From NCBI GenBank assembly GCA_001784875.1, contig MFSH01000008.1, positions 1,555 to 65,554 on the forward strand: a stretch of DNA of 64,000 nucleotides. The letters run 5' to 3'. The notes beneath the pieces were generated by a model. The model saw only the letters and a list, made by a program, of their open reading frames with translations. It had not been told where the DNA came from and ran no database searches. The first letter of the stretch is position 1. Each line of letters starts with the position of its first letter. A program made the position numbers and the translations under genes. The DNA is from Candidatus Moranbacteria bacterium RIFOXYB1_FULL_43_19 (GTDB taxonomy: Bacteria; Patescibacteriota; Minisyncoccia; Moranbacterales; UBA11712). Positions 1 to 53,976 of this stretch are shown piece after piece.

Positions 1-1339
1 AATATTTATACATTTTCGAATCATTTTCCAAAGCTAAGCTTTTTGGATTAAAGCTCGGCTTTTCCCTTCCAAGAGCTAAGCTCTTGGAATTTCTCAAAGC
101 CAAGCTTTCGCTTAGTTTTTTATCGACTAAAACCTCGACAACCCTACCGATGTATTTTTTATTATTTACGAGTGCGGTGCGCGCGAGGATATTTGTGAGT
201 ATTTTTTCGCGGCGAACCTTTTCTTTTTTCGAAATATTATTTTTCAGCTTCCAAGCGGCGGTCTCGGAGCGGGGGGAATATTGGGAAATGTAAGCCATAT
301 CGAATTTCATTTCACGAAATAATTTTACCGTGTTTTCAAATTGTTTTTTGGTTTCGCCGGGGAAGCCGACGATGATGTCGGTGGAAACGGCTGGCGCTGT
401 GTCCGAAAGCTCAACTTTCGGAAATTTCCGAAAGTTGAGCTTTCGGATTTGATAAGTTTGGCGGATTTTTTTGATGAGATTTTTATAATGGGCAACCGTA
501 TAACGCCGGTTCATTTTGCGCAAAATTTCATTGTCTCCCGATTGGGCGGGGAGAGAAATATACTCGCAAATATTTTTTGATTTGACAATTGTTTCAATCA
601 GCTCGTCGGACATATCTTTGGGATGGGAGGTGAGAAAAGATAACCAAAACTTTCCCCGTATAGCGTCTATTGACTCTAACAAATCGGCAAAGCTAATAGT
701 TTTCTTTTTTGTATCTGGTATTTTGTATCTGGTATTTTGTATCTTTGATCTATAGGAATTTACATTTTGTCCAAGTAAAATAATTTCTTTATATCCTTTT
801 TGAACTAAACCTTTGATTTCTTCTAAAATATCTTCCGCCGGCCGCGAATACTCCCGGCCGCGGGCGTAGGGGACGACGCAGTAGGAGCAGAAATTGTTGC
901 AGCCGGTCATGATGGGAACATAGGCGGTATAGTTGTTTGAATATTTCGGTGTTATTTGGAGATAATTATTGCATGGCAAGGTTTTTATATTTAGTATCTG
1001 GTATTTAGTATTTAGTATTTTTTCAATTTCTTTTGGAAAAACTTTAATAGTTACAAATAGATCAGCTTTTTCTTTAAGTCTTCTCTGGACGTCTTTGCGG
1101 TGGGCAAGGCAGCCGGTGAGAATGATAAATTTCTTCGGATATTTTTTTCGGATATTGTTAATTTGCCCGTAAACCCGGTCTTCAGCTGATTGGCGAACTC
1201 CGCAGGTGACAAATATGACAAAGTCCGCCTCTTCTAGCGAGGCGGATTTTTTCAGCTTATATTTTTTTAAGATGGTTTCAATCCTTTCGGCGTCGGAATA
1301 GTTCATTTGACAACCGAAGATTTTGATATAGTAGGTCAT
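1..1339 (-). CDS. MiaB-family radical-SAM methylthiotransferase (MiaB/RimO-like); C-terminus runs off the window start
   Basis: The reverse-strand ORF starts at the ATG at 1339-1337. Its translation reads MTYYIKIFGCQMNYSDAE, VTCGVRQSAE, PIMTGCNNFCSYCVVPYARGREYSRP (the CxxxCxxC radical-SAM site), ILLGQNVNSY, ISLPAQSGDNEILRKMNRRYT, IIVGFPGET and MAYISQYSPRSE. No stop occurs before position 1. It is missing from the ORF track because it is edge-truncated. Confidence 0.75.
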   Translation of the reverse strand, partial: MTYYIKIFGCQMNYSDAERIETILKKYKLKKSASLEEADFVIFVTCGVRQSAEDRVYGQINNIRKKYPKKFIILTGCLAHRKDVQRRLKEKADLFVTIKVFPKEIEKILNTKYQILNIKTLPCNNYLQITPKYSNNYTAYVPIMTGCNNFCSYCVVPYARGREYSRPAEDILEEIKGLVQKGYKEIILLGQNVNSYRSKIQNTRYKIPDTKKKTISFADLLESIDAIRGKFWLSFLTSHPKDMSDELIETIVKSKNICEYISLPAQSGDNEILRKMNRRYTVAHYKNLIKKIRQTYQIRKLNFRKFPKVELSDTAPAVSTDIIVGFPGETKKQFENTVKLFREMKFDMAYISQYSPRSETAAWKLKNNISKKEKVRREKILTNILARTALVNNKKYIGRVVEVLVDKKLSESLALRNSKSLALGREKPSFNPKSLALENDSKMYKY

Positions 1340-1413
1340 CGGTAACAATGGTTATTAGCGGCTGGAAGAGTCGTTAGTTCCTGGTTATCAGAAAAACCAA
1401 TAGGCAATAAAAC

Positions 1414-9797: not shown

Positions 9798-11054
9798 ATG
9801 TCATATTTTGAAATAATCGGGGGAAGAAAATTGAATGGAGAGATCGAAGTGAAAGGCGCCAAGAACGCGGCCTTGAAAGCCGTAGCGTCGGCTCTTTTGT
9901 CGCGTGAAAAATGGACAATTACCAATCTCCCGCAAATCGAGGATATAAGCCGGATTTTGGAAATGGTGGAAGATTTGGGCGCGGAAGCAAAAAGAAGCAA
10001 AAATAAAGTTGAAATTCAAGCCAAAAACATCAAAAAAAGCCGTTTAAGCGAGAGACTGGCCGGAAAACTACGGGCTTCGATAATCCTGGCCGGACCGGTT
10101 CTGGCGCGAACGGGAAAAGTTTCCATGCCTTATCCGGGAGGGTGCGTGATCGGCAAGCGCCCCATTGATTTGTTCCTCGCCGGATTCCAGAAAATGGGAG
10201 CCAAAGTGAAATGGCAGGATGACCATTTCAGTTTGTCCGCCAAAAAACTAAAAGGCGCGAAAATATTTTTTCCAAAAATAACCGTGACGGGAACAGAAGC
10301 CATGATGATCACGGCGGTTGTAGCGGAAGGAGAGACGATTCTTGAGAACGCTGCCATGGAACCGGAAATTCCGGCTCTGGCGGAATTTCTCAATCGCTCT
10401 GGCTCAAAAATATCAGGCGCCGGAACGCCGACCATCAGAATAAAAGGGGTGAAAAAAATCGGAGGCGGCCGGATGAAAATTATTCCGGACCGGATCGAAA
10501 CAGGGACATTTGTCATACTCGCGGCGCTTTGCGGAGGAAAAATAAAAATCAAGAACTGCAATCCGGACCATATCAGAGCATTCCTTGCGAATATTCAAAA
10601 AGCGGGTGTCCGGATCGAGGAAGAAAATAACGAGCTTGTCGTTTGGGGAGCGGAAAAAATAAATCCGGTCAACGTGTCAACCCACGAATATCCAGGATTT
10701 GCGACTGATCTTCAGCCGCCTTTCACGCTGCTCATGACGCGGGCCAGGGGGACAAGCCAAATTCACGATCCTATTTTTGAAGGGAGACTGCTTTTCACGG
10801 ATATTTTGAATTCGATGGGAGCGAATATTGTTCTCAATGATCCGCATCGGGCGACGGTTCAAGGGCCGACGAAACTGCGAGGGAGAAAAATTGCGAGCCC
10901 TGATCTTCGGGCGGGGATTACACTTCTTCTTTCCGGACTCATCGCGAAAGGGAAAACGACCGTTGAGAATATTTATCAGATTGACAGGGGATATGAAAGG
11001 ATTGAGGAGAGGCTGCAAAAGTTGGGAGCAGATATCAAGCGAATCGAGAAATAA
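9798..11054 (+). CDS. murA: UDP-N-acetylglucosamine 1-carboxyvinyltransferase
   Basis: The N-terminus reads MSYFEIIGGRKLNGEIEVKGAKNAALK. An active-site Cys lies in the PYPGGCVIGKRPID region (characteristic MurA/EPT fold). The ATG at 9798 is preferred over the upstream TTG. Confidence 0.9.
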   Translation: MSYFEIIGGRKLNGEIEVKGAKNAALKAVASALLSREKWTITNLPQIEDISRILEMVEDLGAEAKRSKNKVEIQAKNIKKSRLSERLAGKLRASIILAGPVLARTGKVSMPYPGGCVIGKRPIDLFLAGFQKMGAKVKWQDDHFSLSAKKLKGAKIFFPKITVTGTEAMMITAVVAEGETILENAAMEPEIPALAEFLNRSGSKISGAGTPTIRIKGVKKIGGGRMKIIPDRIETGTFVILAALCGGKIKIKNCNPDHIRAFLANIQKAGVRIEEENNELVVWGAEKINPVNVSTHEYPGFATDLQPPFTLLMTRARGTSQIHDPIFEGRLLFTDILNSMGANIVLNDPHRATVQGPTKLRGRKIASPDLRAGITLLLSGLIAKGKTTVENIYQIDRGYERIEERLQKLGADIKRIEK

Positions 11055-11058
11055 AAAT

Positions 11059-11190
11059 AAAATCCTAAATCCTAAATCCTAAACTCTAAACAATATCAAA
11101 ATTCAAATTATAAAAATTCAAAACCGTTTTGAAAATTTGTATTTTTGAATTTGAATTTGTTTAGGATTTAGTGCTTAGTGCTTAGGATTT
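11059..11190. repeat. long (~130 nt) near-perfect palindrome between murA and mreB, ending in a T-run; likely acts as a terminator
   Basis: The left arm AAATCCTAAATCCTAAATCCTAAACTCTAAACA mirrors the right arm TGTTTAGGATTTAGTGCTTAGTGCTTAGGATTT. The spacer is itself palindromic. TTTTTTATTTT follows. Confidence 0.5.
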
Positions 11191-11198
11191 TTTATTTT

Positions 11199-12206
11199 AT
11201 GTTTATCAAAAAAATCGGCATTGATTTGGGAACCGCCAACACCCTTGTCTTTCTTCCGGGCAAGGGGATTGTTGTCAATGAGCCGTCTGTTGTGGCTATT
11301 TCCCTCATTGACAATAAGATTCTGGCGGTCGGTAACGAAGCCAAGGAAATGATGGGGAGAACGCCCGAATCCATCACCGCCCAAAGACCCCTGAAAGACG
11401 GTGTAATTGCGGATTATCGGATTACAGAAGCTATGCTTCGCTACTTTATAAACAAAGTAAGCGGCGGTTTTCGGCTAGTGCGACCCGAGGTTATGATTTC
11501 GATTCCGGCCGGAGTCACGTCGACAGAGCGCCGGGCGGTTATTGACGCAGCGGTAAAAGCTGGCGCCAAAACGGCCTATGTCGTCAAAGAGCCGGTTCTG
11601 GCGGCGATTGGAGCGGGGATTCCCATCAACAGTGCGGCGGGAAATATGATTGTTGATATTGGAGGAGGAACGAGCGAAGTGGCAATCATATCTCTCGGAG
11701 GAATTGTGGCGGCTCACAGCGCGCGGGTGGGGGGAAACAAGATAGACCAGGCAATTGCCGATTTCATAAAAAAGAAGCATGGCCTCGCCGTCGGGGAACG
11801 GACAGCCGAGGAAATAAAAATCGCGATCGGGAGCGCCATGCCGCAGACAAAAGATGAATATGTCGAAGTGCGAGGACGCGATCTCATCGCGGGACTTCCG
11901 AAAACAATCCGTGTTTCAGCGAATGAAATGACGGAAGCCATCCAAGACGAGCTTCGGGAAATCATAAACGCGATCAAAAGGGTTCTTCAGGAAACGCCAC
12001 CTGAATTGGCAGCGGACGTAATTGACAAGGGAATGATTCTTTCGGGAGGCGGAGCGCTGCTCCGGAATCTCGATCAGCTTATCACAAAGACAACCGGTGT
12101 TCCGTGCTATGTCGCGGATGATCCGCTTCTTTGCGTCGCAAAAGGAACGGGAATTGCTCTCGAACATCTGGAGATGTATAAGAGAACTATAATGATGTCG
12201 AAATAA
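11199..12206 (+). CDS. mreB: rod-shape-determining protein MreB (paralog 1)
   Basis: The N-terminus reads MFIKKIGIDLGTANTLVF and the actin-fold motifs are present. The ATG at 11199 is used because the track's GTG at 11178 lies inside the palindrome. Confidence 0.9.
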   Translation: MFIKKIGIDLGTANTLVFLPGKGIVVNEPSVVAISLIDNKILAVGNEAKEMMGRTPESITAQRPLKDGVIADYRITEAMLRYFINKVSGGFRLVRPEVMISIPAGVTSTERRAVIDAAVKAGAKTAYVVKEPVLAAIGAGIPINSAAGNMIVDIGGGTSEVAIISLGGIVAAHSARVGGNKIDQAIADFIKKKHGLAVGERTAEEIKIAIGSAMPQTKDEYVEVRGRDLIAGLPKTIRVSANEMTEAIQDELREIINAIKRVLQETPPELAADVIDKGMILSGGGALLRNLDQLITKTTGVPCYVADDPLLCVAKGTGIALEHLEMYKRTIMMSK

Positions 12207-12297
12207 ATCACGAAACACGTAACACAAAAAGAAATGAATTAGGCGAGTTATTATTTAGTTCGGAGTATAGAGTTATGTGCTATGTGTTATGAGTTAT

Positions 12298-13404
12298 ATG
12301 ACTATTGGAATTGACGCCAGTCGCGCGTTTCAAAAAAACAAAACCGGGATTGAAGAGTATTCCTATCAGGTTATCAAGCTCCTGCGCGATTTTTTTAAGG
12401 GCGATCAAGTGATTTTATATTGCAATCCGGCGATAAATATAAAACCGGATTTTAGCTTTCCCGAAAATTGGCAGGTGAAAAATTTGCGCGCGCCGATTTT
12501 TTGGACGCAGGCAAGGCTGTCGCTTGAAATGCTGTTTCATCCCGTGGACGTGTTATTCGTGCCAGCGCATACGGTGCCGCTCATCCATCCCAAAAATACA
12601 ATTGTCACTGTCCACGGCCTTGAATTTGAATTTTGCCCGAAAGCCTATTCGCCTTGGCAAAGATTTTATATGCGCTTCGTGATCAAAAATTCCTGCCGTT
12701 GGGCGAAAAAAATAATCGCAGTGAGCGAGAATACGAAGTCTGACTTAATATCAAAATATAATGTTGATGAAAAAAAAATAAAAGTAATATACGAGGGCTA
12801 CAGCGAGTATAATTTTCAATTTCCAATTTCAAATTTTAAATCGAGTCCAAATAATAAAATTTCAAATTATAGAGGTTACATCTTATTCATAGGGCGCCTC
12901 GAGAATAGAAAGAACATCAATGGTATAGTTGAGGCCTTTGAAATTCTGAAAGAGAAATACAAAATTGCGCATAAATTGATCCTGGTTGGCAAGTTTGGCT
13001 ATGGAGGGGATAAAATAAAAGAAAAAATATATAAAAGCGAATACAAAAACGACATTATTTTGACAGGATACGTGAGCGAAGAGGATAAATATTATTTGCT
13101 GAAAAGCGCGGGTATGTTTTTGTTCCCGACATTTTATGAAGGGTTTGGACTGCCGATTCTCGAAGCGCAGAAGGTCGGCACGCCGGTCGTCACTTCGAAT
13201 GTTTCTTCAATGCCGGAAGTGGCAGGGGATGGGGCGGTTTTGGTTGACCCGAAAGATCCGGGCGCGATTGCGGAAGCGATTTATAAGCTCGTCTCGGACG
13301 AAAGCTATAAAAATGATATAATAGAAAAAGGCCTTGCGAACGTGAAAAGATTTTCGTGGGAAAAATGCAGCCGCGAAATCGCGGATGTAATTCGTAATTT
13401 GTGA
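12298..13404 (+). CDS. GT4-family glycosyltransferase
   Basis: The N-terminus reads MTIGIDASRAF and the retaining-GT EX7E motif (FPTFYEGFGLPILEAQKVGTPVV) is present. The start may be at 12277, 12289 or 12298. Confidence 0.8.
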   Translation: MTIGIDASRAFQKNKTGIEEYSYQVIKLLRDFFKGDQVILYCNPAINIKPDFSFPENWQVKNLRAPIFWTQARLSLEMLFHPVDVLFVPAHTVPLIHPKNTIVTVHGLEFEFCPKAYSPWQRFYMRFVIKNSCRWAKKIIAVSENTKSDLISKYNVDEKKIKVIYEGYSEYNFQFPISNFKSSPNNKISNYRGYILFIGRLENRKNINGIVEAFEILKEKYKIAHKLILVGKFGYGGDKIKEKIYKSEYKNDIILTGYVSEEDKYYLLKSAGMFLFPTFYEGFGLPILEAQKVGTPVVTSNVSSMPEVAGDGAVLVDPKDPGAIAEAIYKLVSDESYKNDIIEKGLANVKRFSWEKCSREIADVIRNL

Positions 13405-13487
13405 ATTTGTAATTTGGATATTTTGAATACTCTCATATATGCATATGTGCATATATGAGAGTGTGCGCACTACGATATATCGTAGTG
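13381..13487. repeat. family D 3'-end element (GATGTAATTCGTAATTTGTGAATTTGTAATTTGG plus two perfect hairpins)
   Basis: The element overlaps the last codons and stop of the GT4 gene. The hairpins CTCTCATATATGCA/TGCATATATGAGAG and CACTACGATATATCGTAGTG follow. A paralogous copy lies at the uvrA 3' end. Confidence 0.5.
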
Positions 13488-13603
13488 AAAAAGTTAAAAG
13501 TTATTTGAAAACGAGGGAAATATATTTGGATAAAAAAACCGGACCGGTTCACAGATGAAAATTGTGAGCGGGCCCGGGGGGATTTTTTCAATATTTTGGT
13601 TAG

Positions 13604-13882
13604 CTACAACATAACCTCAATAATTTCTGTTTCAGGGGGCAGGAATTGAAGCTTACCCGTAGCCAAATCCAGTACTGCGATATTATTGTCCATCAGCTCC
13701 CTGGTTCTTTCTTCGCCCAAGTATAGAGCGAATTCATCGATCCGTTGACAGATCCTAAGTTTATTGCCATCTGGGTGGAATTGGCGAGCGTTAGATAAAA
13801 TTTGATGAACTTCACTCGCGACAATGAACCTGGATTTAGCTGGACAAAATCGGAGTTTTGCAAGGTGCTCTCCTTTTTTCAT
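13604..13882 (-). CDS. hypothetical small protein (92 aa)
   Basis: GGAGG lies 4 nt upstream of the ATG on the minus strand. No family was recognised. Confidence 0.3.
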   Translation of the reverse strand: MKKGEHLAKLRFCPAKSRFIVASEVHQILSNARQFHPDGNKLRICQRIDEFALYLGEERTRELMDNNIAVLDLATGKLQFLPPETEIIEVML

Positions 13883-13914: not shown

Positions 13915-15093
13915 ATGATTTCGAATCACTCTATCACAACTAATAAACTTCGTCAAGGATTCAAAGTGGCTCTTGTCCACGATTTTCTGAACCAACACGG
14001 CGGGGCGGAGAGGGTGCTTTTGGCGTTGCACGAGATATTTACCGAAGCGCCGATTTATACTTTGCTTTATGACCCTCAAAAAATGCGGGGGAAATTCAAG
14101 GACGCCGACGTTCGGCCGTCGTTCCTTCAAAAATTTCCGAAGTTTTTGAAAAAGCGACATAAGTGGCTTTTGCCTCTTATGCCGACTGCGCCGGAGACTT
14201 TCAACCTTCGGGATTTTGATCTGGTGATTTCTTCTTCGAGCGCTTTCGCCAAGGGAATAATAGTCAAACCAAAAACAATTCACATCTGCTACTGCCACAG
14301 CCCCATGAGATACGCCTGGGATTGGAACGAAAAATATCTCGACGAGCAGGGGCTGGGCACGAAAAGACGGATCCTGGCGCGGCTTCTTCTCAATTATGTC
14401 CGGATGTGGGACAAAGTGGCGGCGGACCGGGTGGATTTTTTCATCGCCAATTCAAAATATACCAGGGAGAGAATAAAAAAATACTATGGCTGCGAAAGTG
14501 CGGTCGTTTATCCGCCAGTGGATATTTCTTCCAAGACTAAATCTGGGAGCGATTTCCAAGACTTAGTCTTGGAAAAACGGGGTTACTTTTTGATTGTTTC
14601 CCGGCTATCGCCATACAAGAAAGTTGAAATCGCCGTGGAAGCCATGAACAAATTGAATCTTCCGCTCTTGGTAATTGGAGAAGGTTCTCCGAAATACGTG
14701 AAATACCTGAAATCAATCGCGGGGCCGAAAACGAAATTTCTGGGATTCCTACCGGATGAAATGATAAAAAAATATTTTTTCGGATGCCGAGCCTTCATTT
14801 TTCCGGGAGAAGATGATTTTGGAATCGCACCGGTTGAAGCCATGTCTTTTGGAAAGCCGGTGATTGCTTTCCGGCGGGGAGGAGCCATGGAAACGGTTGT
14901 CGAAGGAGAAACGGGAGAATTTTTTAACGAGCCAACAATTGAAGTTCTGGCCGACGCGGTGCGCCGGTTCCAGGAAAATGAAAAAAATTATGACCCGGAA
15001 AAAATCCAGCATCAGGCGCAAAAGTTTTCAAAAGAAAAATTTCGGGAGCATTTTTTGGAGGAAATTGAAAAAATAATACAAATACGCGATTGA
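13915..15093 (+). CDS. GT4-family glycosyltransferase
   Basis: The N-terminus has KVALVHDFLNQHGGAERVL and the C-terminus has the EX7E motif (FPGEDDFGIAPVEAMSFGKPVIA). It carries an in-frame CCAAGACTTAGTCTTGG repeat at 14531-14572. The ATG at 13915 is preferred over the TTG at 13858. Confidence 0.8.
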   Translation: MISNHSITTNKLRQGFKVALVHDFLNQHGGAERVLLALHEIFTEAPIYTLLYDPQKMRGKFKDADVRPSFLQKFPKFLKKRHKWLLPLMPTAPETFNLRDFDLVISSSSAFAKGIIVKPKTIHICYCHSPMRYAWDWNEKYLDEQGLGTKRRILARLLLNYVRMWDKVAADRVDFFIANSKYTRERIKKYYGCESAVVYPPVDISSKTKSGSDFQDLVLEKRGYFLIVSRLSPYKKVEIAVEAMNKLNLPLLVIGEGSPKYVKYLKSIAGPKTKFLGFLPDEMIKKYFFGCRAFIFPGEDDFGIAPVEAMSFGKPVIAFRRGGAMETVVEGETGEFFNEPTIEVLADAVRRFQENEKNYDPEKIQHQAQKFSKEKFREHFLEEIEKIIQIRD

Positions 15094-19823: not shown

Positions 19824-20876
19824 ATGCTTTCAAAAATATTCGGGAAATTTTCAAAAGATATCGGGATTGACCTTGGAACGGCCAACACTTTGGTTTATGT
19901 CCGTGACAAGGGAATCGTCATCAACGAGCCCTCGGTGGTGGCCGTCAACCAAAAAACGGGACAGATCCTGGCTATCGGCTCCGAGGCCAAAAAAATGGTC
20001 GGGAAAACTCCTTCGCATATTGTTGCCACGCGGCCTCTCGTTGATGGAGTTGTTTCTGATTTTGAAGTTACGGAACAGATGCTTCGCTATTTCATCGAAA
20101 AAGTCCATCAAGGAAGTTCGGCCTTTTTTTCCCGCCCCCAAGTGGTGATCGGAATTCCATCGGGAGTGACTGAAGTGGAAAAAAGAGCGGTGGTCGACGC
20201 GGCAGTCAGTGCCGGAGCGCGAAAAGCCTATCTTGTCGACGAGCCTATGGCGGCGGCTATCGGTGCCCGGCTTCCAGTCCAGGAGGCTTCAGGGAATATG
20301 ATAGTTGACATTGGAGGCGGCACGACGGAAATTGCGGTGATATCGCTTGGTGGAGTGGTTGTTTGCCGGAGTCTCCGTATTGCGGGGGACGAAATGAACG
20401 AAGACATTATCCGCTTCGCCCGGGACGAATTCAACCTTCTTCTTGGGGAAAAAACAGCTGAAGATATCAAAATTGCCATCGGGAGCGCCTATGAGCTCAA
20501 TGAAGTTCTGGAAATGCCGATGCGCGGAAGAGATCTCGTGACGGGCCTTCCTAAAGAAGTAATTGTGAACGATGCCCAAATCCGGGAAGCTATTTTCCGG
20601 TCGATAAAGATTATCGTCAACAATATCAAGTCAACTATTGAAGAAACTCCTCCGGAGCTTCTTTCTGATATAATGCAAAGGGGAATAATCCTGGCCGGCG
20701 GCGGGAGCCTCATTCGGGGGATCGAAAGGCTTATTTCCGAGCAAACTGATATGCCTGTCCGGGTAATGGATGATCCTCTGACGGCGGTTGTCCGGGGAAC
20801 GGGAATAATTCTTGAACACATTGACGAGTTGAAAGATATTTTGACGGAAACGCAGTACGATAAGGTATCTTTTTAG
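19824..20876 (+). CDS. mreB: rod-shape-determining protein MreB (paralog 2), followed by mreC, mreD and PBP2
   Basis: The N-terminus reads MLSKIFGKFSKDIGIDLGTANTLVYV. Confidence 0.9.
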   Translation: MLSKIFGKFSKDIGIDLGTANTLVYVRDKGIVINEPSVVAVNQKTGQILAIGSEAKKMVGKTPSHIVATRPLVDGVVSDFEVTEQMLRYFIEKVHQGSSAFFSRPQVVIGIPSGVTEVEKRAVVDAAVSAGARKAYLVDEPMAAAIGARLPVQEASGNMIVDIGGGTTEIAVISLGGVVVCRSLRIAGDEMNEDIIRFARDEFNLLLGEKTAEDIKIAIGSAYELNEVLEMPMRGRDLVTGLPKEVIVNDAQIREAIFRSIKIIVNNIKSTIEETPPELLSDIMQRGIILAGGGSLIRGIERLISEQTDMPVRVMDDPLTAVVRGTGIILEHIDELKDILTETQYDKVSF

Positions 20877-20970
20877 TAGCTGGTAGCTAGTATATGGTAT
20901 CTGGTATATTTTTTTTGATATCAATAAAATAAAATACTAAATACTAAATAACAGATACCAAATACAAGTC
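20874..20970. repeat. family B repeat (GGTATCTGGTAT / ATACTAAATACTAAATA...GATACCAAATAC)
   Basis: The same motifs occur in-frame in the MiaB-like gene at 711-750 and 983-1024. Confidence 0.45.
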
Positions 20971-25104: not shown

Positions 25105-25222
25105 GGGAACAAGGTTGTGAGCAGTGAGTTAGGTCTTTGGTCATGGGTCTTTGGGGGCTCAATTCCCACAGCCAATGAATCATGACTAGTCCCACTGCCC
25201 ACTGCTTCGTTACTCACAGCCA
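25105..25222. repeat. family E intergenic imperfect inverted repeat
   Basis: GTGAGCAGTGAG ... CCCACTGCCCACTGC...CTCACAGCC. Confidence 0.5.
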
Positions 25223-28730: not shown

Positions 28731-29921
28731 ATGTCTGAAAAAATAGACTTATCACCTATAAAAGAAATGGAACTCCGGGCGTCTCGCATTCCCGGAGTTG
28801 TTTCGCTGGCGCAGGGCGTGCCGTCTTTTGACACTCCGGAAACAGTGAAAAGCGCGGCCATTGAAGCGATTGAGAAGGGGAAGGTGGCCAAATATTCTCT
28901 GGCGCCGGGAACTCTTGAATTCCGGGAAGCAATTGCCCAGCATCTGGAAAAGGAAAACAAATTTTTTGACTTTGAGAAGGAAGTCATCGCCACTGCCGGA
29001 TCCATCGAGGCAATCACGGCGACACTTCTGGCGATTATCGAACCGGGTGACGAAGTTCTGATTCCGGATCCGACTTACACTTCATACCAGTCGGCTATCA
29101 AAGTTGCCCGGGGAGTTCCCGTTTTTGTTCCGCTCGATGAAAAAAATCATTGGGCACTCGACATTGAGAAATTCGAAAAACTCATCACACCGCGGACGAG
29201 AGCTTTTCTTTTTTGCAATCCCAACAATCCGACTGGAACCGTATTTGCTCGCAACCAGCTGCACGCGCTGGCGCAACTGGCCATCAAGCACAATTTATAC
29301 ATTTTGAGCGACGAAGTTTATAAGGATTTCGTCTTTGATTCCGGGGAAAAATTATATTCTCTTGCCGAACTTCGCGGCATCCGTGACCGACTCGTCTACA
29401 TATATTCCTTTTCCAAAGCCTATGCCATGACCGGCTGGCGGATAGCATATCTCGCCACGCATCAGGATCTATCCGCGCGCATTCTGGCGGTTCATGACGC
29501 GCTGGTCACCTGCGCGCCGGTCATTTCCCAATTCGCGGCCCAGGCGGCGCTTGAGATGGCCGATAAGGAGGTCATGCGTTTTAGAAATTATTTCCGGAAA
29601 AGACGGGACCTCATCTGCAAAAGACTGGACAAACTCAGCCACGTTTTTGAATATCAGAAACCGGACAGCGCCTATTTTGTGTTTCCCCGGATAAAAAAGG
29701 ATATTCTGCAAAAAATTGCCCCTGATGGCGGTTCCTGGCAGTTTGCGATAGAATTATTGGAGAAAGCCAAAGTGGCTACAGTCCCCGGTTCGGCTTTCGG
29801 TCCCAACGGCGAAAACCATATCCGGATGTGTTTTGGAAGGAGCGAAGAAGATATTAATTTGGCCTTTGACAGGATGGAAAAATATTTCAATGAACAAGGA
29901 ACAAAGATCAACGATCAATAA
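28731..29921 (+). CDS. class I/II PLP-dependent aminotransferase (AspC family)
   Basis: The PLP-lysine motif SFSKAYAMTGWRIAY is present. Confidence 0.8.
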   Translation: MSEKIDLSPIKEMELRASRIPGVVSLAQGVPSFDTPETVKSAAIEAIEKGKVAKYSLAPGTLEFREAIAQHLEKENKFFDFEKEVIATAGSIEAITATLLAIIEPGDEVLIPDPTYTSYQSAIKVARGVPVFVPLDEKNHWALDIEKFEKLITPRTRAFLFCNPNNPTGTVFARNQLHALAQLAIKHNLYILSDEVYKDFVFDSGEKLYSLAELRGIRDRLVYIYSFSKAYAMTGWRIAYLATHQDLSARILAVHDALVTCAPVISQFAAQAALEMADKEVMRFRNYFRKRRDLICKRLDKLSHVFEYQKPDSAYFVFPRIKKDILQKIAPDGGSWQFAIELLEKAKVATVPGSAFGPNGENHIRMCFGRSEEDINLAFDRMEKYFNEQGTKINDQ

Positions 29922-29967
29922 TTTTTTGTTCGTTGTTCTTTGATCATTGATCATTATCTAGGTAAGT

Positions 29968-30748: not shown

Positions 30749-31627
30749 ATGGCTTTTTTCCGCAAAAAAGAAAAAAACAAAAGTTGGAAGCGCAAGAAAA
30801 CAAAAATATATTCCGGTGTGCCGAAAAGGGAAAAACAAGAAAAAAAGGGCCGCTTCAGTCGATTCCTTTTTTGGATCTTGCTTTTGGGATTTTTGGGAGT
30901 ATGTGGATACCTTCTTTTTTTCTCGCCTTTTTTGGATGTGGACTCCATAGCTGTCGATGGAAACAAAGAAATACCGTCGGAGCAAATAGTCGAAAAAGCG
31001 AACGGCGCAATAGAAGGAAAATATTGGGGCTATCTTTCGAAACGTAATTTTCTCCTTGTCAGCAAGAATGCCATAAATAGTCAGCTGAAAAGCAGCTTCA
31101 ACCGGCTCGAAATTTCTTCAATCGAAAAAAAGTTTCCCCGGACAATTTTTATCAAAGTCAAGGAGCGCCAGCCGGAGCTTGTCTGGTGCAGCGGGGGAGT
31201 CTGCTATCTGGCTGACAAAAACGGCCTGATCTATTCCGGAGCCAACGCGACAGACGAACAGATAAACAAAGAACGTTTTCTGGTCGCGATTGATGACAAC
31301 GCCCGGCCGGTTGAAATAGGAAAAAATACTCTCGGCGAAAACTTCATCCAATATCTCAAAGAGATTGACGCGGTTCTTGTAAATGACCTCGGGTTTTCAA
31401 TTGACGGAAAATACCATACCCCCGCCCTTTCTTCGCAGGAAATCATTGTGAAAATCAAAGAGGGTGAAGGCTGGACGCTGAAGCTTTCCAGCTTGATTTC
31501 CCCCGGGGAGACAAAAAAAATTCTCGAAACGGTTTTCGAGAAGGATCTATCGGGGGACAAAAGGATCCGATTGGAATATTTGGATTTGAGGGTGAAGGGT
31601 AAGGTGTATTATAAACTTAGGTCATAA
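30749..31627 (+). CDS. FtsQ/DivIB-like cell division protein (POTRA domain)
   Basis: A basic N-terminus and a TM segment are followed by a POTRA-like region (SIAVDGNKEIPSEQIVEKA). Confidence 0.6.
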   Translation: MAFFRKKEKNKSWKRKKTKIYSGVPKREKQEKKGRFSRFLFWILLLGFLGVCGYLLFFSPFLDVDSIAVDGNKEIPSEQIVEKANGAIEGKYWGYLSKRNFLLVSKNAINSQLKSSFNRLEISSIEKKFPRTIFIKVKERQPELVWCSGGVCYLADKNGLIYSGANATDEQINKERFLVAIDDNARPVEIGKNTLGENFIQYLKEIDAVLVNDLGFSIDGKYHTPALSSQEIIVKIKEGEGWTLKLSSLISPGETKKILETVFEKDLSGDKRIRLEYLDLRVKGKVYYKLRS

Positions 31628-31629
31628 GA

Positions 31630-31735
31630 AACAAGCGGTGGGCGGTGGGTCTAGCCGTGGGCCATTAGTTATTAGTTTCCCATGACCCAAGACCGGTGAC
31701 CTGCCCCATTACCAATGACCTAGTTACCAATGACT
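31630..31735. repeat. family E intergenic imperfect inverted repeat
   Basis: AGCGGTGGGCGGTGGG ... CCCATGACCCAAGACCGGTGACC. Confidence 0.5.
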
Positions 31736-31769
31736 TATTATTGCTCCAAAGTTCAAGATAATATAGAAA

Positions 31770-41746: not shown

Positions 41747-41949
41747 AAGTTGATATGGAAATAGCGACGCTTTTGGCGTAATTTCTAATTTCTGATACCC
41801 AATTTCCAATAAAATGTCCAATATTAAAAATTAAAATTTTTGTAATTGGGCATTTAGATTTTTATTAGAAATTAGATGTTAAATATTGGAATTTTGACGG
41901 GAAGTTTATTTACGGTGATATTGCATAAATAAATATTTACGGATCTTTT

Positions 41950-42474
41950 ATGGCACAACAATTATATCAGGAGCCTATCGAAAAGGAGGATTTGGATTTG
42001 GCGAAAAAGTTAAAAAGTGATATTCCAGCCGCGGGCGCAGGAAAAGTACCAGAAAATGTGGAAACGAAAAAAACGGAAATTACTGAAATTCCGGAAGTAC
42101 CGGTGCCGGAGGCTGAAAAAGCCACGGGAGTTGAATCTGAAATGGGAGGAGAAAAAAAGGCCGAGGAAGTTTCCGAAAAAATTGAAACCGTCCGGAAATC
42201 GATCCAAACCCAAAAACCGACGGCCGGGGCGAGCGTGGCTTCGGACGCGGGAACAGTTTCGCAAATCACAGAATATGAAAAAAAAGTGGAAAAACTGGTC
42301 GAAATGGCGCTCCAAAAAGGCCCGGAGCACGCGATCAAAGTCGCGCGGCACATGGACAAAGGAAAGTCTCCCAGCCAGGCGGATAACTATACCCTCGATG
42401 AAATCCACGACCGTCTTTTGGAAGAGAGTCTTCGAAAACAACTTATTCAGAAAGGACTATTAAAAGAATTATAA
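41950..42474 (+). CDS. hypothetical acidic protein
   Basis: A clean ORF flanked by AT-rich spacers. Confidence 0.4.
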   Translation: MAQQLYQEPIEKEDLDLAKKLKSDIPAAGAGKVPENVETKKTEITEIPEVPVPEAEKATGVESEMGGEKKAEEVSEKIETVRKSIQTQKPTAGASVASDAGTVSQITEYEKKVEKLVEMALQKGPEHAIKVARHMDKGKSPSQADNYTLDEIHDRLLEESLRKQLIQKGLLKEL

Positions 42475-42621
42475 ATTTTTAATTTAGAATTTCGAAATAA
42501 TTTCAAATGATATAATTTTGAAACATTAAAGCATTGGAACATTATTTCAAAATTAAAAATTGGAAATTCAAAATTGTATATCAGAATATTCTTCTTAAAA
42601 TAAAAACAAAAACATATTTAG

Positions 42622-50196: not shown

Positions 50197-50295
50197 CCTT
50201 AAATGGGGGATTTTTGTGTTAGGGATATGAATTTAGCGCGGAGAATCCTAAAGCTAAACTTTAGGAGCGCCTAAAGTTTAGCTTTAGGGGAAAAT

Positions 50296-50377
50296 ATGGA
50301 TAAAATAATCATTCGCGGAGCTCGCGAGCACCCCGAAGTATAACGCTTCGCGTTAACTACGGGGCAAGCAATTTGAT
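50296..50377 (+). promoter_or_regulatory. uvrA leader: a 15-codon uORF (MDKIIIRGAREHPEV) mimicking the UvrA N-terminus, overlapping a conserved hairpin element (50331-50370)
   Basis: The uORF ATG at 50296 has a GGGGA SD and its stop lies at 50341-50343. Its first 12 codons are synonymous or conservative variants of the uvrA start at 50378. The hairpin CCCCGAAGTATAACGCTTCGCGTTAACTACGGGGCAAGC has a paralog at 55392-55436. Confidence 0.35.
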
Positions 50378-53254
50378 ATGAATAAGATCATTATAAAAGG
50401 TGCTAGAGAACATAATCTCAAAAACATCGACCTTGAACTTCCGCGGGGGAAGTTTATCGTGTTCACGGGAATCAGCGGGTCGGGAAAAAGTACACTCGCA
50501 TTCGACACCATTTTTGCCGAAGGGCAAAGGCGGTATCTTGAAAGTTTGTCGAGTTATGCCCGGCAGTTTTTGGGACAAATGGAAAAACCGGATGTGGATT
50601 CAATCGAAGGTTTGAGCCCTGCGATTTCGATTGACCAGAAAGCCTCATCGCACAATCCGCGCTCGACAGTCGGGACAGTGACGGAAATCCAAGACTATCT
50701 GCGGCTTCTCTATGCCAAAATCGGACGGCCGCACTGCCCGGTATGTGGAAAAGAAATTTCGAAACTTTCAATTGATGAAATTGTGGATCGGATACTAACA
50801 TTCAATGCTCCGGGAACATTGAATGTTTTAGAAATTCTTTCACCGGTAGTCCGCGAGCGGAAAGGTGATTATGCCACGCTTCTTGCGGAGATGTGGAAAA
50901 GGGGATTCGCGGAGGCCTACGTGGATGGAAAAAAAGTGGTCCTCGAAGATGAAGCGAAAAAAGGAAAAATACTCGCCAGATACAAAAAACACAGCATTGA
51001 TATTTTGATTGATACGGTTGAAATCAGCGATAAAAATATTAGCCGGATATTTGAAAGTGTTGAGTCGGCGCTCAAGTTGTCTAAGGGATTGGTGAAAGTT
51101 ATTCCCGAAACGCATAACACGAAACACGACACGCGAGGGGAAGGGATTATTTTCAACCAAAATATGGCTTGTCCGGATCATGAGGACGTGGTTTTCCCAG
51201 AACTCGAGCCGAGGCTGTTCTCTTTCAATAGTCCGCAGGGGGCTTGTCCTGACTGCGAAGGATTGGGAACGAAAAAAGAAATTGATCCGAGCCTCATCAT
51301 TCCCGACAAAACCCGAACGATTGCCGAAGGGGCGATCATGCCCTGGAGCTACAAGCCGAACAACTACCAAGGCTCGATTTTGCGGGCGGTGACGAACTAT
51401 TATCATATTCCCGACAACGTCCGTTTCCGGGATTTGAGCGAAAAACAGCAAAATATTTTATTGTATGGGGATGAGGAACCAGAGGATATTGAAGTGCGGC
51501 TGAAGACAAAAACCGGAGCAGTTTGGCGCTTTGACGTCACCTGGAACGGAATTTTGGGCTTTATGCGCGACCGCTATTTCAAGACCGAATCGGAAGCGGT
51601 GCGGCAGGACATTGAAAAATATATGTCCCAAAGTCCGTGCAGCGCCTGCAAAGGTTCACGATACAAGCCGGAAGCGCTGTTAATAACAGTTGGAAGTCGT
51701 AATATTGCCCAAGTTTCAAAAATAAGCGTAAATGAAACGCTGAAATTTTTTGAGAGTTTGAAACTGAACGAGCGGGAAAAAATAATCGCGGGAAAAATCT
51801 TGAACGAAGTGAAAAGCCGCCTGAAATTTTTGGATGATGTCGGGTTGGGCTATTTGACCCTGGCCCGTTCAGCCAATACTCTGGCAGGCGGAGAAACACA
51901 GCGAATTCGTCTTGCTTCTCAAATCGGTTCGCAACTGGTCGGAGTCCTATACATTCTCGACGAACCGTCTGTTGGTCTTCATGCACGTGACAATGCGAAG
52001 CTTCTTGATACGCTGCTTAAGTTGAGAGACATTGGCAACACAGTGATTATTATCGAACATGACGAGGAAACTATCCGGAGTGCCGATCATCTGGTTGACA
52101 TCGGGCCGGGTGCGGGAAGGCTTGGCGGGGAGATTGTGGCTGAAGGAAAAATTAAAGATATCGAAACTGCTAAGAATTCTGTCACTGGCAAATACTTACG
52201 GGGAGAACTTGAAATTTCAATCCCAAAGGGTCGCCGGCCAGTGCGAAACAAAAAATGGCTGACCGTGAAAGGAGCGACAGAGCATAATCTCAAAAACGTG
52301 ACGGTTGAATTTCCTTTGAAAACTTTGACGTGCGTGACGGGCGTTTCGGGGTCGGGAAAATCAACACTCGTCGAAGACATTCTTGGAAAAGGACTTTCAG
52401 CAAAAATCATGCGTTCGCTGGAGCGGCCAGGCCGGCACAAGGAAATTCTCGGTACGCAGTATGTGGACAAAGTGATCCATATCAACCAGTCGCCGATCGG
52501 GAGGACGCCGCGATCGAACCCGGCGACATATGTGGGATTTTTCACACTGATTCGAGAACTTTTTGCGATGACAAAAGATGCGAAGCGGCATGGTTATGGT
52601 CCGGGAAGGTTTTCTTTCAACGTGAATGGGGGGCGTTGCGACAATTGCCGCGGGGAAGGATTTTTGAAAGTTGAAATGCAGTTTATGCCGGATGTATTTT
52701 TGCCGTGTGATGTCTGTCGCGGAAAAAGATACAACCGGGAAACGCTCGAAGTGAAATATAAAGGAAAAAATATCGCCGATATTCTCGCGATGACGGTTTC
52801 GGAAGGAAAAGTTTTTTTTGAAAATTATCCACGGATATATGCGCCGCTCAAAGTCCTCGAGGAGGTCGGGCTGGGATACATCAATCTTGGCCAGGCGGCG
52901 ACAACGCTCTCGGGCGGGGAAGCGCAGAGAATCAAACTGGCCTCGGAACTTTCGCGGCGGATGACCGGAAATACATTATACATTCTTGATGAGCCGACAA
53001 CAGGACTGCATTTCGACGACGTGAAAAAATTATTGAACGTTCTCCATCGCTTGGTGGAGGCGGGAAATACTGTTATTGTGGTTGAGCACAATATGGATGT
53101 TATCAAAACGGCCGATTGGATCATTGACCTTGGACCGGAAGGCGGGGACAATGGCGGACGCGTGGTGGTCACCGGCCCGCCGGAAGAAGTGGTGAAGTAT
53201 CATCAAGAAAGTTATACCGCAAAATTTCTTCGCGACGTAATTCGTAAATCGTAA
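50378..53254 (+). CDS. uvrA: excinuclease ABC subunit A
   Basis: Two ABC ATPase modules (GISGSGKSTL, GVSGSGKSTL), zinc fingers and LSGGE signatures are present. An in-frame ACACG repeat lies at 51107-51137. The last codons lie inside a family D repeat. Confidence 0.92.
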   Translation: MNKIIIKGAREHNLKNIDLELPRGKFIVFTGISGSGKSTLAFDTIFAEGQRRYLESLSSYARQFLGQMEKPDVDSIEGLSPAISIDQKASSHNPRSTVGTVTEIQDYLRLLYAKIGRPHCPVCGKEISKLSIDEIVDRILTFNAPGTLNVLEILSPVVRERKGDYATLLAEMWKRGFAEAYVDGKKVVLEDEAKKGKILARYKKHSIDILIDTVEISDKNISRIFESVESALKLSKGLVKVIPETHNTKHDTRGEGIIFNQNMACPDHEDVVFPELEPRLFSFNSPQGACPDCEGLGTKKEIDPSLIIPDKTRTIAEGAIMPWSYKPNNYQGSILRAVTNYYHIPDNVRFRDLSEKQQNILLYGDEEPEDIEVRLKTKTGAVWRFDVTWNGILGFMRDRYFKTESEAVRQDIEKYMSQSPCSACKGSRYKPEALLITVGSRNIAQVSKISVNETLKFFESLKLNEREKIIAGKILNEVKSRLKFLDDVGLGYLTLARSANTLAGGETQRIRLASQIGSQLVGVLYILDEPSVGLHARDNAKLLDTLLKLRDIGNTVIIIEHDEETIRSADHLVDIGPGAGRLGGEIVAEGKIKDIETAKNSVTGKYLRGELEISIPKGRRPVRNKKWLTVKGATEHNLKNVTVEFPLKTLTCVTGVSGSGKSTLVEDILGKGLSAKIMRSLERPGRHKEILGTQYVDKVIHINQSPIGRTPRSNPATYVGFFTLIRELFAMTKDAKRHGYGPGRFSFNVNGGRCDNCRGEGFLKVEMQFMPDVFLPCDVCRGKRYNRETLEVKYKGKNIADILAMTVSEGKVFFENYPRIYAPLKVLEEVGLGYINLGQAATTLSGGEAQRIKLASELSRRMTGNTLYILDEPTTGLHFDDVKKLLNVLHRLVEAGNTVIVVEHNMDVIKTADWIIDLGPEGGDNGGRVVVTGPPEEVVKYHQESYTAKFLRDVIRKS

Positions 53255-53325
53255 TTTGTAATTGGGATAATTTTCACTACAACTAGTTGTAGTGAGTTTT
53301 ACTACTATATATAGTAGTAAAATAA
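53231..53325. repeat. family D 3'-end element (GACGTAATTCGTAAATCGTAATTTGTAATTGGG plus two perfect hairpins)
   Basis: It supplies ...DVIRKS-stop to uvrA. The hairpins CACTACAACTAGTTGTAGTG and TTTACTACTATATATAGTAGTAAA follow. Confidence 0.5.
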
Positions 53326-53401: not shown

Positions 53402-53644
53402 TTAAGATCTCGTGATAACACGGACTCGCTGGTCCATGGTGTTCTGCATGTCCGTACTGGTTCCCACAGAAATGATTTTTTCCGCGCAGGCCTGATTCTC
53501 AAGGTAATTCAAGAACTCAGACAAGACGAGATCATCCGTGGCGCCAGTGAAAGCTCGATCCAGTGCGCGCCTTCCATCTTGAGTAACCAGGGCTTCGTAC
53601 TCGCTGCCTTTGAATTTAATCCGTACCTCGTAAACCATTATCAT
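53402..53644 (-). CDS. hypothetical small protein (80 aa)
   Basis: A strong SD (AAGGAGG) precedes the ATG at 53644. Confidence 0.45.
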   Translation of the reverse strand: MIMVYEVRIKFKGSEYEALVTQDGRRALDRAFTGATDDLVLSEFLNYLENQACAEKIISVGTSTDMQNTMDQRVRVITRS

Positions 53645-53655
53645 GGCCGGCCTCC

Positions 53656-53976
53656 TTAGCTGATTGGCTCGATCGGGGTCACTGGCGTCGATTGGTGAAG
53701 TTCGTAATAATTGTCGCCAGGTCCTAAGATTGGGATGATATCCCGCCCCGGATTTTCCATCGGTCGCACGACGACAAATTTTACGCCGCCGTTATTTGGC
53801 CAGCCCAGTTCGAAGAGTCGCCAGGGTTCCATTTCGCCGAGAGGGATTAAGGGTAATTTTTTATACATCTCTCCCAGAGGAGGGGGAACGTCCAGACGCT
53901 TGCCTATAAGATACAAACCTGACAACACCAGTGCAACGAAGCACAAAGCGATTCCAATGATATCCACTTTTTCCAT
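53656..53976 (-). CDS. hypothetical small membrane-anchored protein
   Basis: An N-terminal TM segment (IIGIALCFVALVLSGLYLI) and an AAGGAGG SD just upstream of the start region. Confidence 0.45.
   Translation of the reverse strand: MEKVDIIGIALCFVALVLSGLYLIGKRLDVPPPLGEMYKKLPLIPLGEMEPWRLFELGWPNNGGVKFVVVRPMENPGRDIIPILGPGDNYYELHQSTPVTPIEPIS

Follow-up and report, generated by a model that had tools for sequence, protein, structure and literature searches.

Two gene 3′ ends on GTAATTN heptamer repeats in a Moranbacteria genome

An excess of heptanucleotide repeats has been described in bacteria, and one study (PMC4679880), which cites the 2007 survey of Mrazek, gives slippage as their proposed origin and reports sets of heptamers lying over the stop codon of the upstream gene, where they bring a stop in each of the three frames. 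Dispersed repeats that lengthen genes at their 3′ ends or are translated in frame have been reviewed elsewhere (PMC3184786, section 15), together with SPRITE, a terminator-like repeat. In this work we analyse a stretch of 64 kb (hereafter the window) of Candidatus Moranbacteria bacterium RIFOXYB1_FULL_43_19, a metagenome-assembled genome (MAG) of the candidate phyla radiation (CPR/Patescibacteria), in which two genes, the one for a GT4-family glycosyltransferase (GT4) and uvrA, come to their end within short arrays of the heptamer GTAATTN. The window was compared with 238 kb of fetched Moranbacteria loci, with an outgroup of 367 kb around uvrA from other phyla, with 120 UvrA orthologs and with the GT4 orthologs P0121-P0200 (loci of relatives are labelled L, orthologous proteins P). 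A metagenome scan with the UvrA tail returned mostly other phyla, only L018-L020 being informative. Since L001 and L002, which come from two other samples, match the window with 100% identity over 17.5 and 22.9 kb, the sequence at GT4 and uvrA is not an assembly artefact; these two contigs show no difference from it in the number of units.

In both genes the array encodes the last five codons and the stop, which falls in the third unit (Table 1). GT4 ends in ...ADVIRNL on a TGA at 13402-13404, and UvrA in ...RDVIRKS on a TAA at 53252-53254. That one repeat encodes the terminal codons and the stop of the two genes had already been claimed in a preliminary description of this DNA, and direct reading and alignments bear it out. 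The 33 nt that it found to be shared are also real, although the string at uvrA lies at 53234-53266, 1-3 nt away from where it had been placed, and that these 33 nt are a tandem heptamer array had escaped the description. Tandem Repeats Finder (TRF) gives a period of 7 for both arrays, with 4.3 and 4.0 copies and 84-85% matches, which makes them heptanucleotide simple-sequence repeats in the sense of at least three head-to-tail copies of 7 nt. We are dealing with members of a dispersed repeat that are translated in frame and supply terminal codons and stop, that is, with the class of repeat-derived gene 3′ ends as framed by Delihas 2007, Croucher 2011 and Hot 2011. The reading follows from the arithmetic of the unit: each one contains TAA and 7 is 1 modulo 3, so that an array entered with GTA as a codon is read V-I-(NGT)-(AAW)-x and stops in unit 3. 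Such an entry gives exactly five codons before the stop; entry in other frames leads to an earlier stop, and a change in the number of units past the third leaves the protein unaltered. In the GT4 array all three frames are closed by stops by position 13404.

A 20-nt pattern of three heptamers, allowing up to 3 mismatches, is found in the window at the GT4 and uvrA loci only (3 overlapping matches; 0.03 in shuffles). The two loci have in common the order of the units, the closing GGAT, a T-rich tract and hairpins with ACTAC arms (alignments A2 and A3), GGAT being seen in 8 of the 10 arms of alignment A2; that both 3′ ends are copies of one repeat family is supported at the level of sequence comparison. 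The complete element occurs in relatives as a hairpin of ~75 nt with the form (GTAATTN)3-4 GGAT / T-rich loop / ATCC (NAATTAC)3-4; L007, L099, L100, L101 and L011 have it between murA and mreB, and L012 and L100 between mreB and GT4. Its consensus fold shows four helices of 6 bp, the unpaired seventh base between them and GGAT/ATCC closing the structure. The window copies align with the 5′ arms, GGAT and T-rich tract included, and both are devoid of a 3′ arm. The element comprises three to six GTAATTN units, GGAT and a T-rich tract, the complete form adding an inverted arm ATCC (NAATTAC)n, and at GT4 and uvrA the 5′ arm alone is present, joined to short perfect hairpins of the ACTAC-N8-GTAGT type. 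The missing 3′ arm (ATCC NAATTAC...) was sought beyond the minus-strand small open reading frames (ORFs) downstream and none was found there, and the idea of two arms parted by cargo was dropped. Most copies of the family sit 2-16 nt past a stop codon and not across it. With regard to miniature inverted-repeat transposable elements (MITEs), defined by terminal inverted repeats around a short non-coding core, complete copies of relatives carry inverted heptamer arms and the two window copies the 5′ arm only. One complete copy has a core of 190 nt: at L100 1200-1375 a GC-rich insert of ~190 nt lies inside the loop of the murA-mreB GTAATTN hairpin. With Rfam, two tRNAs are the sole matches in the window, and L100-L102, this loop insert included, have none. 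A single one among 2.9 million viral contigs carries (GTAATTG)x4 GGAT, at L103 2962-2992 (IMGVR_UViG_3300045918_000781), and this contig is itself very rich in tandem repeats.

The tails allow the DNA to be examined separately from the protein. GTA (8.2%) and CGT (8.3%) are the rarest valine and arginine codons of the window, and both tails contain both of them. Orthologous GT4 tails read VIRNL, VICNL, VIGNL and VISNL, corresponding to CGT, TGT, GGT and AGT, so that the R/C/G/S variation falls at the NGT codon, whose first letter is the free base at position 7 of the unit; judging from these sequences, it is the repeat that imposes NGT on a chemically unconstrained residue of GT4. Where UvrA relatives lack the array, they have different DNA at the tail (e.g., gaa gtt tta aaa aga taa), with AAA or AGA at the lysine position where the window has CGT. 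On the protein side, about 110 of the 120 UvrA orthologs end in FL[KR][ED][VI]L[KR]K, the protein of Thermotoga ends in FLKNVL, and solved UvrA structures from distant phyla end in FLKNVL or continue as FLAEVV. As the tail is conserved down to distant phyla, the first heptamer encodes conserved positions. GT4 orthologs without the array end in IA[DE][VI]I[KR]N[KL] or similar. In the two proteins the change in tail length amounts to 0-1 residue, UvrA having gained one at most. The preliminary description had proposed that the repeat replaced or extended both 3′ ends: a replacement is suggested at the DNA level by the rare codons and the NGT variation, but the tails are neither extended nor novel. 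Comparison of the ortholog C-termini, which it had recommended, reveals tails resembling the ancestral ones, and half of the outcome that it had named as contrary to its reading (no shared 33 nt elsewhere and orthologs ending in the same DVIR(N/K) residues) was in fact found.

The two arrays have different histories. Homologs of the GT4 protein carry Pfam PF13439 and PF00534 (its representative P0121, of 371 aa, is 100% identical). Outside the window, its gene ends on the array in L099, L100 (where it has six units), L101, L102 and L011, and L009 and L010 retain remnants, the number of units ranging from 3 to 6 between species; in L013 the orthologous stop is covered by another unit, TTTATGA. 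At least 6 species share the array, which shows that the takeover is old at GT4. At uvrA it is recent, the tail being common to the closest relatives only: the 3′ end has no array in L098 (88% identity), L018, L019 and L020, and an RK[ST] tail is confined to P0001-P0003 among the 120 orthologs. In L098, uvrC starts 4 nt past the uvrA stop.

Each array is followed by two hairpins beginning 21-25 nt past the stop codon. The preliminary description had seen two perfect hairpins with shared CACTAC arms behind each gene; all four are indeed perfect, but ACTAC/GTAGT arms are present in three of them and not in the first one of GT4. ACTAC-N(2-14)-GTAGT occurs three times in the window, always at these two loci (0.01 in shuffles), and the three hairpins, all extragenic and at gene 3′ ends, have a constant 8-nt palindromic centre; one more is found in L102, which carries downstream of GT4 TTTACTACGATATATAGTAGTAAA, the type found behind uvrA in the window. 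As RNA, both hairpin regions fold much more stably than shuffled sequence, the energies being -36.7 kcal/mol for one (z -5.4) and -26.4 kcal/mol for the other (z -4.4). The block behind the GT4 array of the window has homologous counterparts in L100, where it is imperfect, and in L102, those of the first hairpin being imperfect copies in both relatives. Hairpins of this kind may act as stabilisers of transcript 3′ ends. Further downstream, the hairpin at 13539-13578 is likely an intrinsic terminator that works in both directions, for GT4 as well as for the small ORF convergent with it.

Table 1. Position of the arrays, hairpins and genes at the two loci (window numbering)
Feature	Coordinates	Strand	Remarks
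GT4-family glycosyltransferase gene	12289..13404	+	From the ORF list; VIRNL codons and TGA inside the heptamer array
GT4 heptamer array	13387..13415	+	5′-arm type of the GTAATTN family (direct reading, pattern, TRF, alignment); units GTAATTC 13387-13393, GTAATTT 13394-13400, GTGAATTT 13401-13408, GTAATTT 13409-13415
GT4 GGAT closure and T-rich tract GGATATTTTG	13416..13425	+	GGAT 13416-13419, then ATTTTG; borders the loop in complete elements (alignment A2)
GT4 hairpin 1	13429..13462	+	Perfect; 15-bp stem 13429-13443/13448-13462, 4-nt loop, no ACTAC arms
GT4 second palindrome, CACTAC GATATATC GTAGTG (= CACTACGATATATCGTAGTG)	13468..13487	+	Perfect; followed by an A-run, not terminator-like on the + strand
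GC-rich hairpin flanked by A-run and T-run	13539..13578	.	Folds on both strands; terminator scan match on the - strand
Lineage-specific 92-aa ORF, convergent with GT4	13604..13882	-	Within a ~520-nt insert before the next glycosyltransferase; no Pfam match
uvrA	50378..53254	+	VIRKS codons and TAA stop inside the heptamer array
uvrA heptamer array	53237..53264	+	Units GTAATTC 53237-53243, GTAAATC 53244-53250, GTAATTT 53251-53257, GTAATTG 53258-53264; TAA successively in frames 2, 3, 1
uvrA GGAT closure and T-rich tract GGATAATTTT	53265..53274	+	GGAT 53265-53268, then AATTTT (alignment)
uvrA hairpin 1, CACTAC AACTAGTT GTAGTG (= CACTACAACTAGTTGTAGTG), then AGTTTTAC	53275..53294	+	Perfect; terminator-like on the + strand
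uvrA hairpin 2, TTTTACTAC TATATATA GTAGTAAAA (= TTTTACTACTATATATAGTAGTAAAA)	53297..53322	+	Perfect; same type after GT4 of L102
Two lineage-specific small ORFs (80 and 106 aa) between uvrA and uvrC	53402..53976	-	No Pfam match

Altogether, we consider that both gene ends lie on copies of a Moranbacteria-specific GTAATTN repeat, an explanation that, taken as a whole, we hold at somewhat better than even odds (about 0.55). Heptamer arrays would arise by replication slippage, as suggested for the heptanucleotide repeats of other bacteria, and the GTAATTN type would then have spread to new sites through a step of recombination or transposition. At the DNA level, the array would have replaced the five terminal codons in each of the two genes. 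The encoded peptide seems to mimic the ancestral amphipathic tail, which would make the exchange near-neutral for the protein, and this conservative character is probably the reason why the array persists. As for a function, the array might be an unstructured spacer that sets stable 3′ hairpins at their distance from the stop, where they could conceivably protect or terminate the transcript. Several observations weigh against this explanation. The tail residues align with those of orthologs lacking the array, which leaves room for a local origin from native codons. The GTAATTN unit type amounts to two copies only in the window, and neither a transposase nor a target-site duplication nor any further sign of mobility was found, the GT4 and uvrA loci themselves showing no evident duplication. 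The full hairpins show 0 compensatory pairs, their sequences being too conserved. The GT4 hairpins have no U-tract, are followed by A-runs and give no terminator match on the + strand; the hairpin block is missing, and hence dispensable, in L101 and has been swapped for a MITE-like element in L099. Finally, stops in all three frames occur in 8 of 16 stop-adjacent arrays, about what chance gives for AT-rich heptamers, and the triple-frame stop was dropped as a selected trait.

The alignment of both tails with the D-V-I-R-(N/K)-like ends of orthologs would be expected if the tails were native and slippage had expanded a native GTAATTC seed at each locus independently, the likeness of the two arrays being convergent. 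The many arrays of other units in the window, which suggest local generation, and the TTTATGA unit lying over the orthologous GT4 stop of L013 point in the same direction. Such a history must however face the rarest valine and arginine codons in both tails, a change from lysine to arginine through CGT that takes three substitutions from AAA, and the unit order, GGAT, T-rich tract and ACTAC hairpins common to both loci and found again at other loci in at least 5 other genomes; moreover, copies of GTAATTN-GGAT away from any V-I-R codons are already known from murA-mreB spacers, and we regard independent expansion as improbable. Another idea, put forward in the preliminary description, is that of an adaptive portable module bringing C-terminus, stop and terminator to any gene behind which it lands. 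Tail codons, stop position and hairpins are certainly common to two genes, the repeat does give codons and stop, and the uvrA copy is a lineage-specific addition; there, the first hairpin with its 10 pairs followed by TTTTACT fits the pattern of an intrinsic terminator. It is nevertheless the sole one of the four to do so, which leaves little of the terminator role in view of the A-runs behind the GT4 hairpins, the separate GC-rich probable terminator 130 nt further on, and the hairpins missing from L101 or replaced in L099. What was taken for a cassette is the 5′ arm of a heptamer hairpin, most copies of which lie past stops and many of which are paired with an inverted arm and not with ACTAC hairpins, and the tails that it brings are not new, differing by 0-1 residue in length. 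A module of this kind thus seems unlikely to us.

The surroundings of the arrays suggest a different role, that of a recombination hot spot where the heptamer arm and the hairpins receive or exchange foreign small genes, the overlap with gene ends being incidental. Both window copies stand at the left edge of lineage-specific inserts with minus-strand small ORFs: the ~520-nt insert 3′ of GT4 is missing from L003, L005, L007, L008, L011 and L013, the uvrA array sits at the left junction of the insert holding the 80- and 106-aa ORFs, and in insert-free relatives GT4 and uvrA border directly on the next glycosyltransferase gene and on uvrC, respectively. The cargo behind the GT4 array is unrelated between the window, L099 and L102, the 92-aa ORF having no relationship with the equivalently placed ORFs of the other two; the murA-mreB hairpin of L100 holds its ~190-nt insert in the loop, and the GT4 tail types are few and patchy on the tree. 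No recombinase was found, however, nor a matching right-hand site or a downstream 3′ arm in the window, and the cases are few and placed on a poorly resolved neighbour-joining tree, all of which makes a hot spot quite improbable. Small ORFs beside the arrays show no kinship to one another or to other loci, and no Pfam match. An extension of this idea, in which heptamer-armed hairpins would be attC-like sites, folded from single strands, of a CPR system swapping small orphan genes, and the overlap with the genes an insertion scar, strikes us as far-fetched. The array could also be read by a protein, an oligomeric nucleic-acid binder following the 7-nt register, with the GTAATT core constant and the seventh base free, that controls hairpin formation and through it termination or translation of the neighbours; a cold-shock-type single-strand binder would be the candidate. 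The strict register and variable seventh base are kept between species at the same loci, CspB is reported to bind heptamer repeats, one protein per heptamer (PMC4679880), and GTCTTTG-like units are present in the window at 25132-25154. Against this stand the lack of any cold-shock motif or candidate gene in the 238 kb of Moranbacteria loci and the coexistence of many units, which suits a mutational origin better than one binding specificity, and we see in a binder a very slim possibility.

Arrays with a period of 7 go well beyond the GTAATTN type. The window has 11 of them, versus 0-3 for each other period and 0 in shuffles, an excess over both other periods and chance. By TRF, the 238 kb of Moranbacteria contain 64 arrays of period 7 (~27 per 100 kb), besides 17 with a period of 14 and 6 with one of 21, and the 367 kb of other phyla contain 17 arrays of period 7 (4.6 per 100 kb). 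Units that recur between loci and species are GTAATTN, GTATCTG/GTATTTA, AATTTCC/AATTTTC, GTAACCC, GCTCAAA and AAATCCT. About half of the Moranbacteria arrays are intergenic, mostly as inverted pairs that give long hairpins (the murA-mreB spacer of the window folds with -38.5 kcal/mol, z -7.3), some 26 lie in frame within ORFs, and 6 cross stop codons. A third gene of the window, an aminotransferase (28731..29921), ends in this way, with NEQGTKINDQ-TAA on an array of another unit at 29888-29918 whose inverted partner, at 29926-29955, lies just ahead of a Mur ligase gene. Intergenic hairpins made of further units (xxxTGAC, AATTTCT, AAAATTA, GTATCTG/GTAGCTG and AAATCCT) were observed at 31620-31740, 41778-41900, 42467-42575, 20876-20965 and 11053-11197, in convergent, divergent and tandem junctions.

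Repeats inside genes were observed as well. A MiaB-like radical-SAM gene (Pfam UPF0004 and Radical_SAM; minus-strand ORF 1..1348) contains three in frame, at 402-447, 707-751 and 984-1020, translated as IRKLNFRKFPKVELS, KIQNTRYKIPDTK and KILNTKYQILNIK; one of the three is a perfect double-hairpin palindrome of 46 nt and the others are heptamer arrays. A near-identical palindrome CCAAGACTTAGTCTTGG..CCAAGACTAAGTCTTGG lies in frame in interdomain linkers of uvrC (54811-54850) and of a second glycosyltransferase (14526-14577), the linker of the latter being hypervariable between orthologs; at a similar position, the uvrC linker of L098 (13641-13678) has a perfect heptamer array (AAATACCAGATACC x2.7). 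The interdomain linker of GT4 (12811-12841) is an array of the AATTTCC type, read as NFQFPISNFKS, and those of its orthologs (P0121-P0180) vary (e.g., NFQFSIFNFQKIFNDKIF and IQYPISNIQKNTKYQIPNTKY), being repeat-encoded and conserved in position, not in sequence. Few types of tail exist among GT4 orthologs P0121-P0200 (VIxNL, LLRN(KVSN), IIQIC, QRRTSVT, MVANDKNE, LGAGEIRI and IIKNK), patchily distributed over the neighbour-joining tree; IIQIC comes about where the GT4 gene overlaps the beginning of the one that follows. A MITE-like element with ends GTCATTCCGACCGAAGCGAAG.../...CGCTCGGGATGAC stands directly behind the GT4 array in L099 (11130-11300) and L009 (~11150-11300), and a similar one behind uvrA in a third species (L018 3300-3440).

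At the other end of uvrA, a diverged second copy of its first 12 codons (ATGGATAAAATAATCATTCGCGGAGCTCGCGAGCAC, MDKIIIRGAREH; 50297-50378) is found 81 nt upstream of the real start MNKIIIKGAREH, and between both start copies lies a hairpin CCCGAAGTATAACGCTTCGCGTTAACTACGGGG with an in-frame TAA; this 5′ end looks like a hairpin insertion mended through duplication of the start region. Further upstream, the perfect double-hairpin palindrome CCTAAAGCTAAACTTTAGG/CCTAAAGTTTAGCTTTAGG (50247-50288) follows the same design of two small hairpins as those at 402-447 and 54811-54850. Within the protein, two insertion hot spots, at alignment columns 164-211 and 308-362, are hypervariable among orthologs P0001-P0049; they hold repeat-like peptides such as IKSQFPISNFQQNPKNKIPKSK and KVRPFPSSSxALGIPQGQTL, and because of them UvrA length ranges from 944 to 1032 aa.

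The picture that emerges is that of a reduced CPR genome seeded with 7-nt tandem arrays and perfect palindromes, by which the ends of genes, the hairpins between them and the linkers of proteins are shaped. For UvrA and GT4 themselves there is probably no practical consequence, and in the annotation of Moranbacteria repeat-encoded tails and linker inserts are to be expected. The GTAATTN family may offer a useful system to approach the unexplained preference of bacteria for heptamer repeats, as one locus can be traced through many species and the overlap with coding sequence records the changes imposed by the repeat.

Among the described systems, the cyanobacterial STRR and the TAACTGA heptamers of Beggiatoaceae (PMC4679880) likewise consist of tandem 7-nt units in 2-6 copies, mainly intergenic and with an excess of period 7, and some of the TAACTGA sets lie over the stop of the upstream gene, their forward units stopping all three frames. 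They differ in the unit, which is TAACTGA or CCCCAGT and not GTAATTN, so that the Moranbacteria arrays do not belong to the TAACTGA family; the arrays of Moranbacteria are arranged in inverted pairs giving long hairpins closed by GGAT/ATCC, several families of units coexist there, and the host is a CPR bacterium. A further difference is that TAACTGA sets are located chiefly upstream of start codons. With REP/BIME and the pneumococcal SPRITE (PMC3184786) our hairpins share the nature of short dispersed palindromes at gene 3′ ends, often between convergent genes, forming stable RNA hairpins with proposed roles in the formation or stability of transcript 3′ ends. The stems of our hairpins are however AT-rich and perfect, only three copies of the ACTAC type are seen in the window, no RAYT or other mobilising gene is known for them, and neither REP nor SPRITE is characterised by a linkage to heptamer arrays. 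Repeats translated within host proteins, some copies of which lengthen a gene at its 3′ end or make up that end and give its stop, are known from Rickettsia RPE, Neisseria Correia, Bordetella BRE, enterobacterial RU-1/2/3 and pneumococcal BOX/RUP (PMC3184786, section 15; PMC2759123). Other copies of these elements lie in frame in tolerant linkers, like the heptamer arrays and palindromes found here in uvrC and in the genes for the MiaB-like protein, GT4 and the second glycosyltransferase; unlike those elements of 100-170 nt and defined sequence, what is translated here is a tandem array of 7 nt, which through its frame arithmetic gives a tail of no more than five residues. The tandem repeats of Borgs (PMC9879509) are similarly pervasive and fast-evolving, occur at gene boundaries and within genes and encode low-complexity peptides, but they have longer units, lengths in multiples of three within genes and no hairpin organisation, and they belong to an archaeal extrachromosomal replicon. 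Our literature search returned no account of such heptamer arrays in CPR bacteria. Repeats fused to the 3′ ends of genes are already known from other bacteria; what is new is that heptamers here make up a hairpin architecture, that the host is a CPR bacterium and that the tail is frame-locked at five residues.

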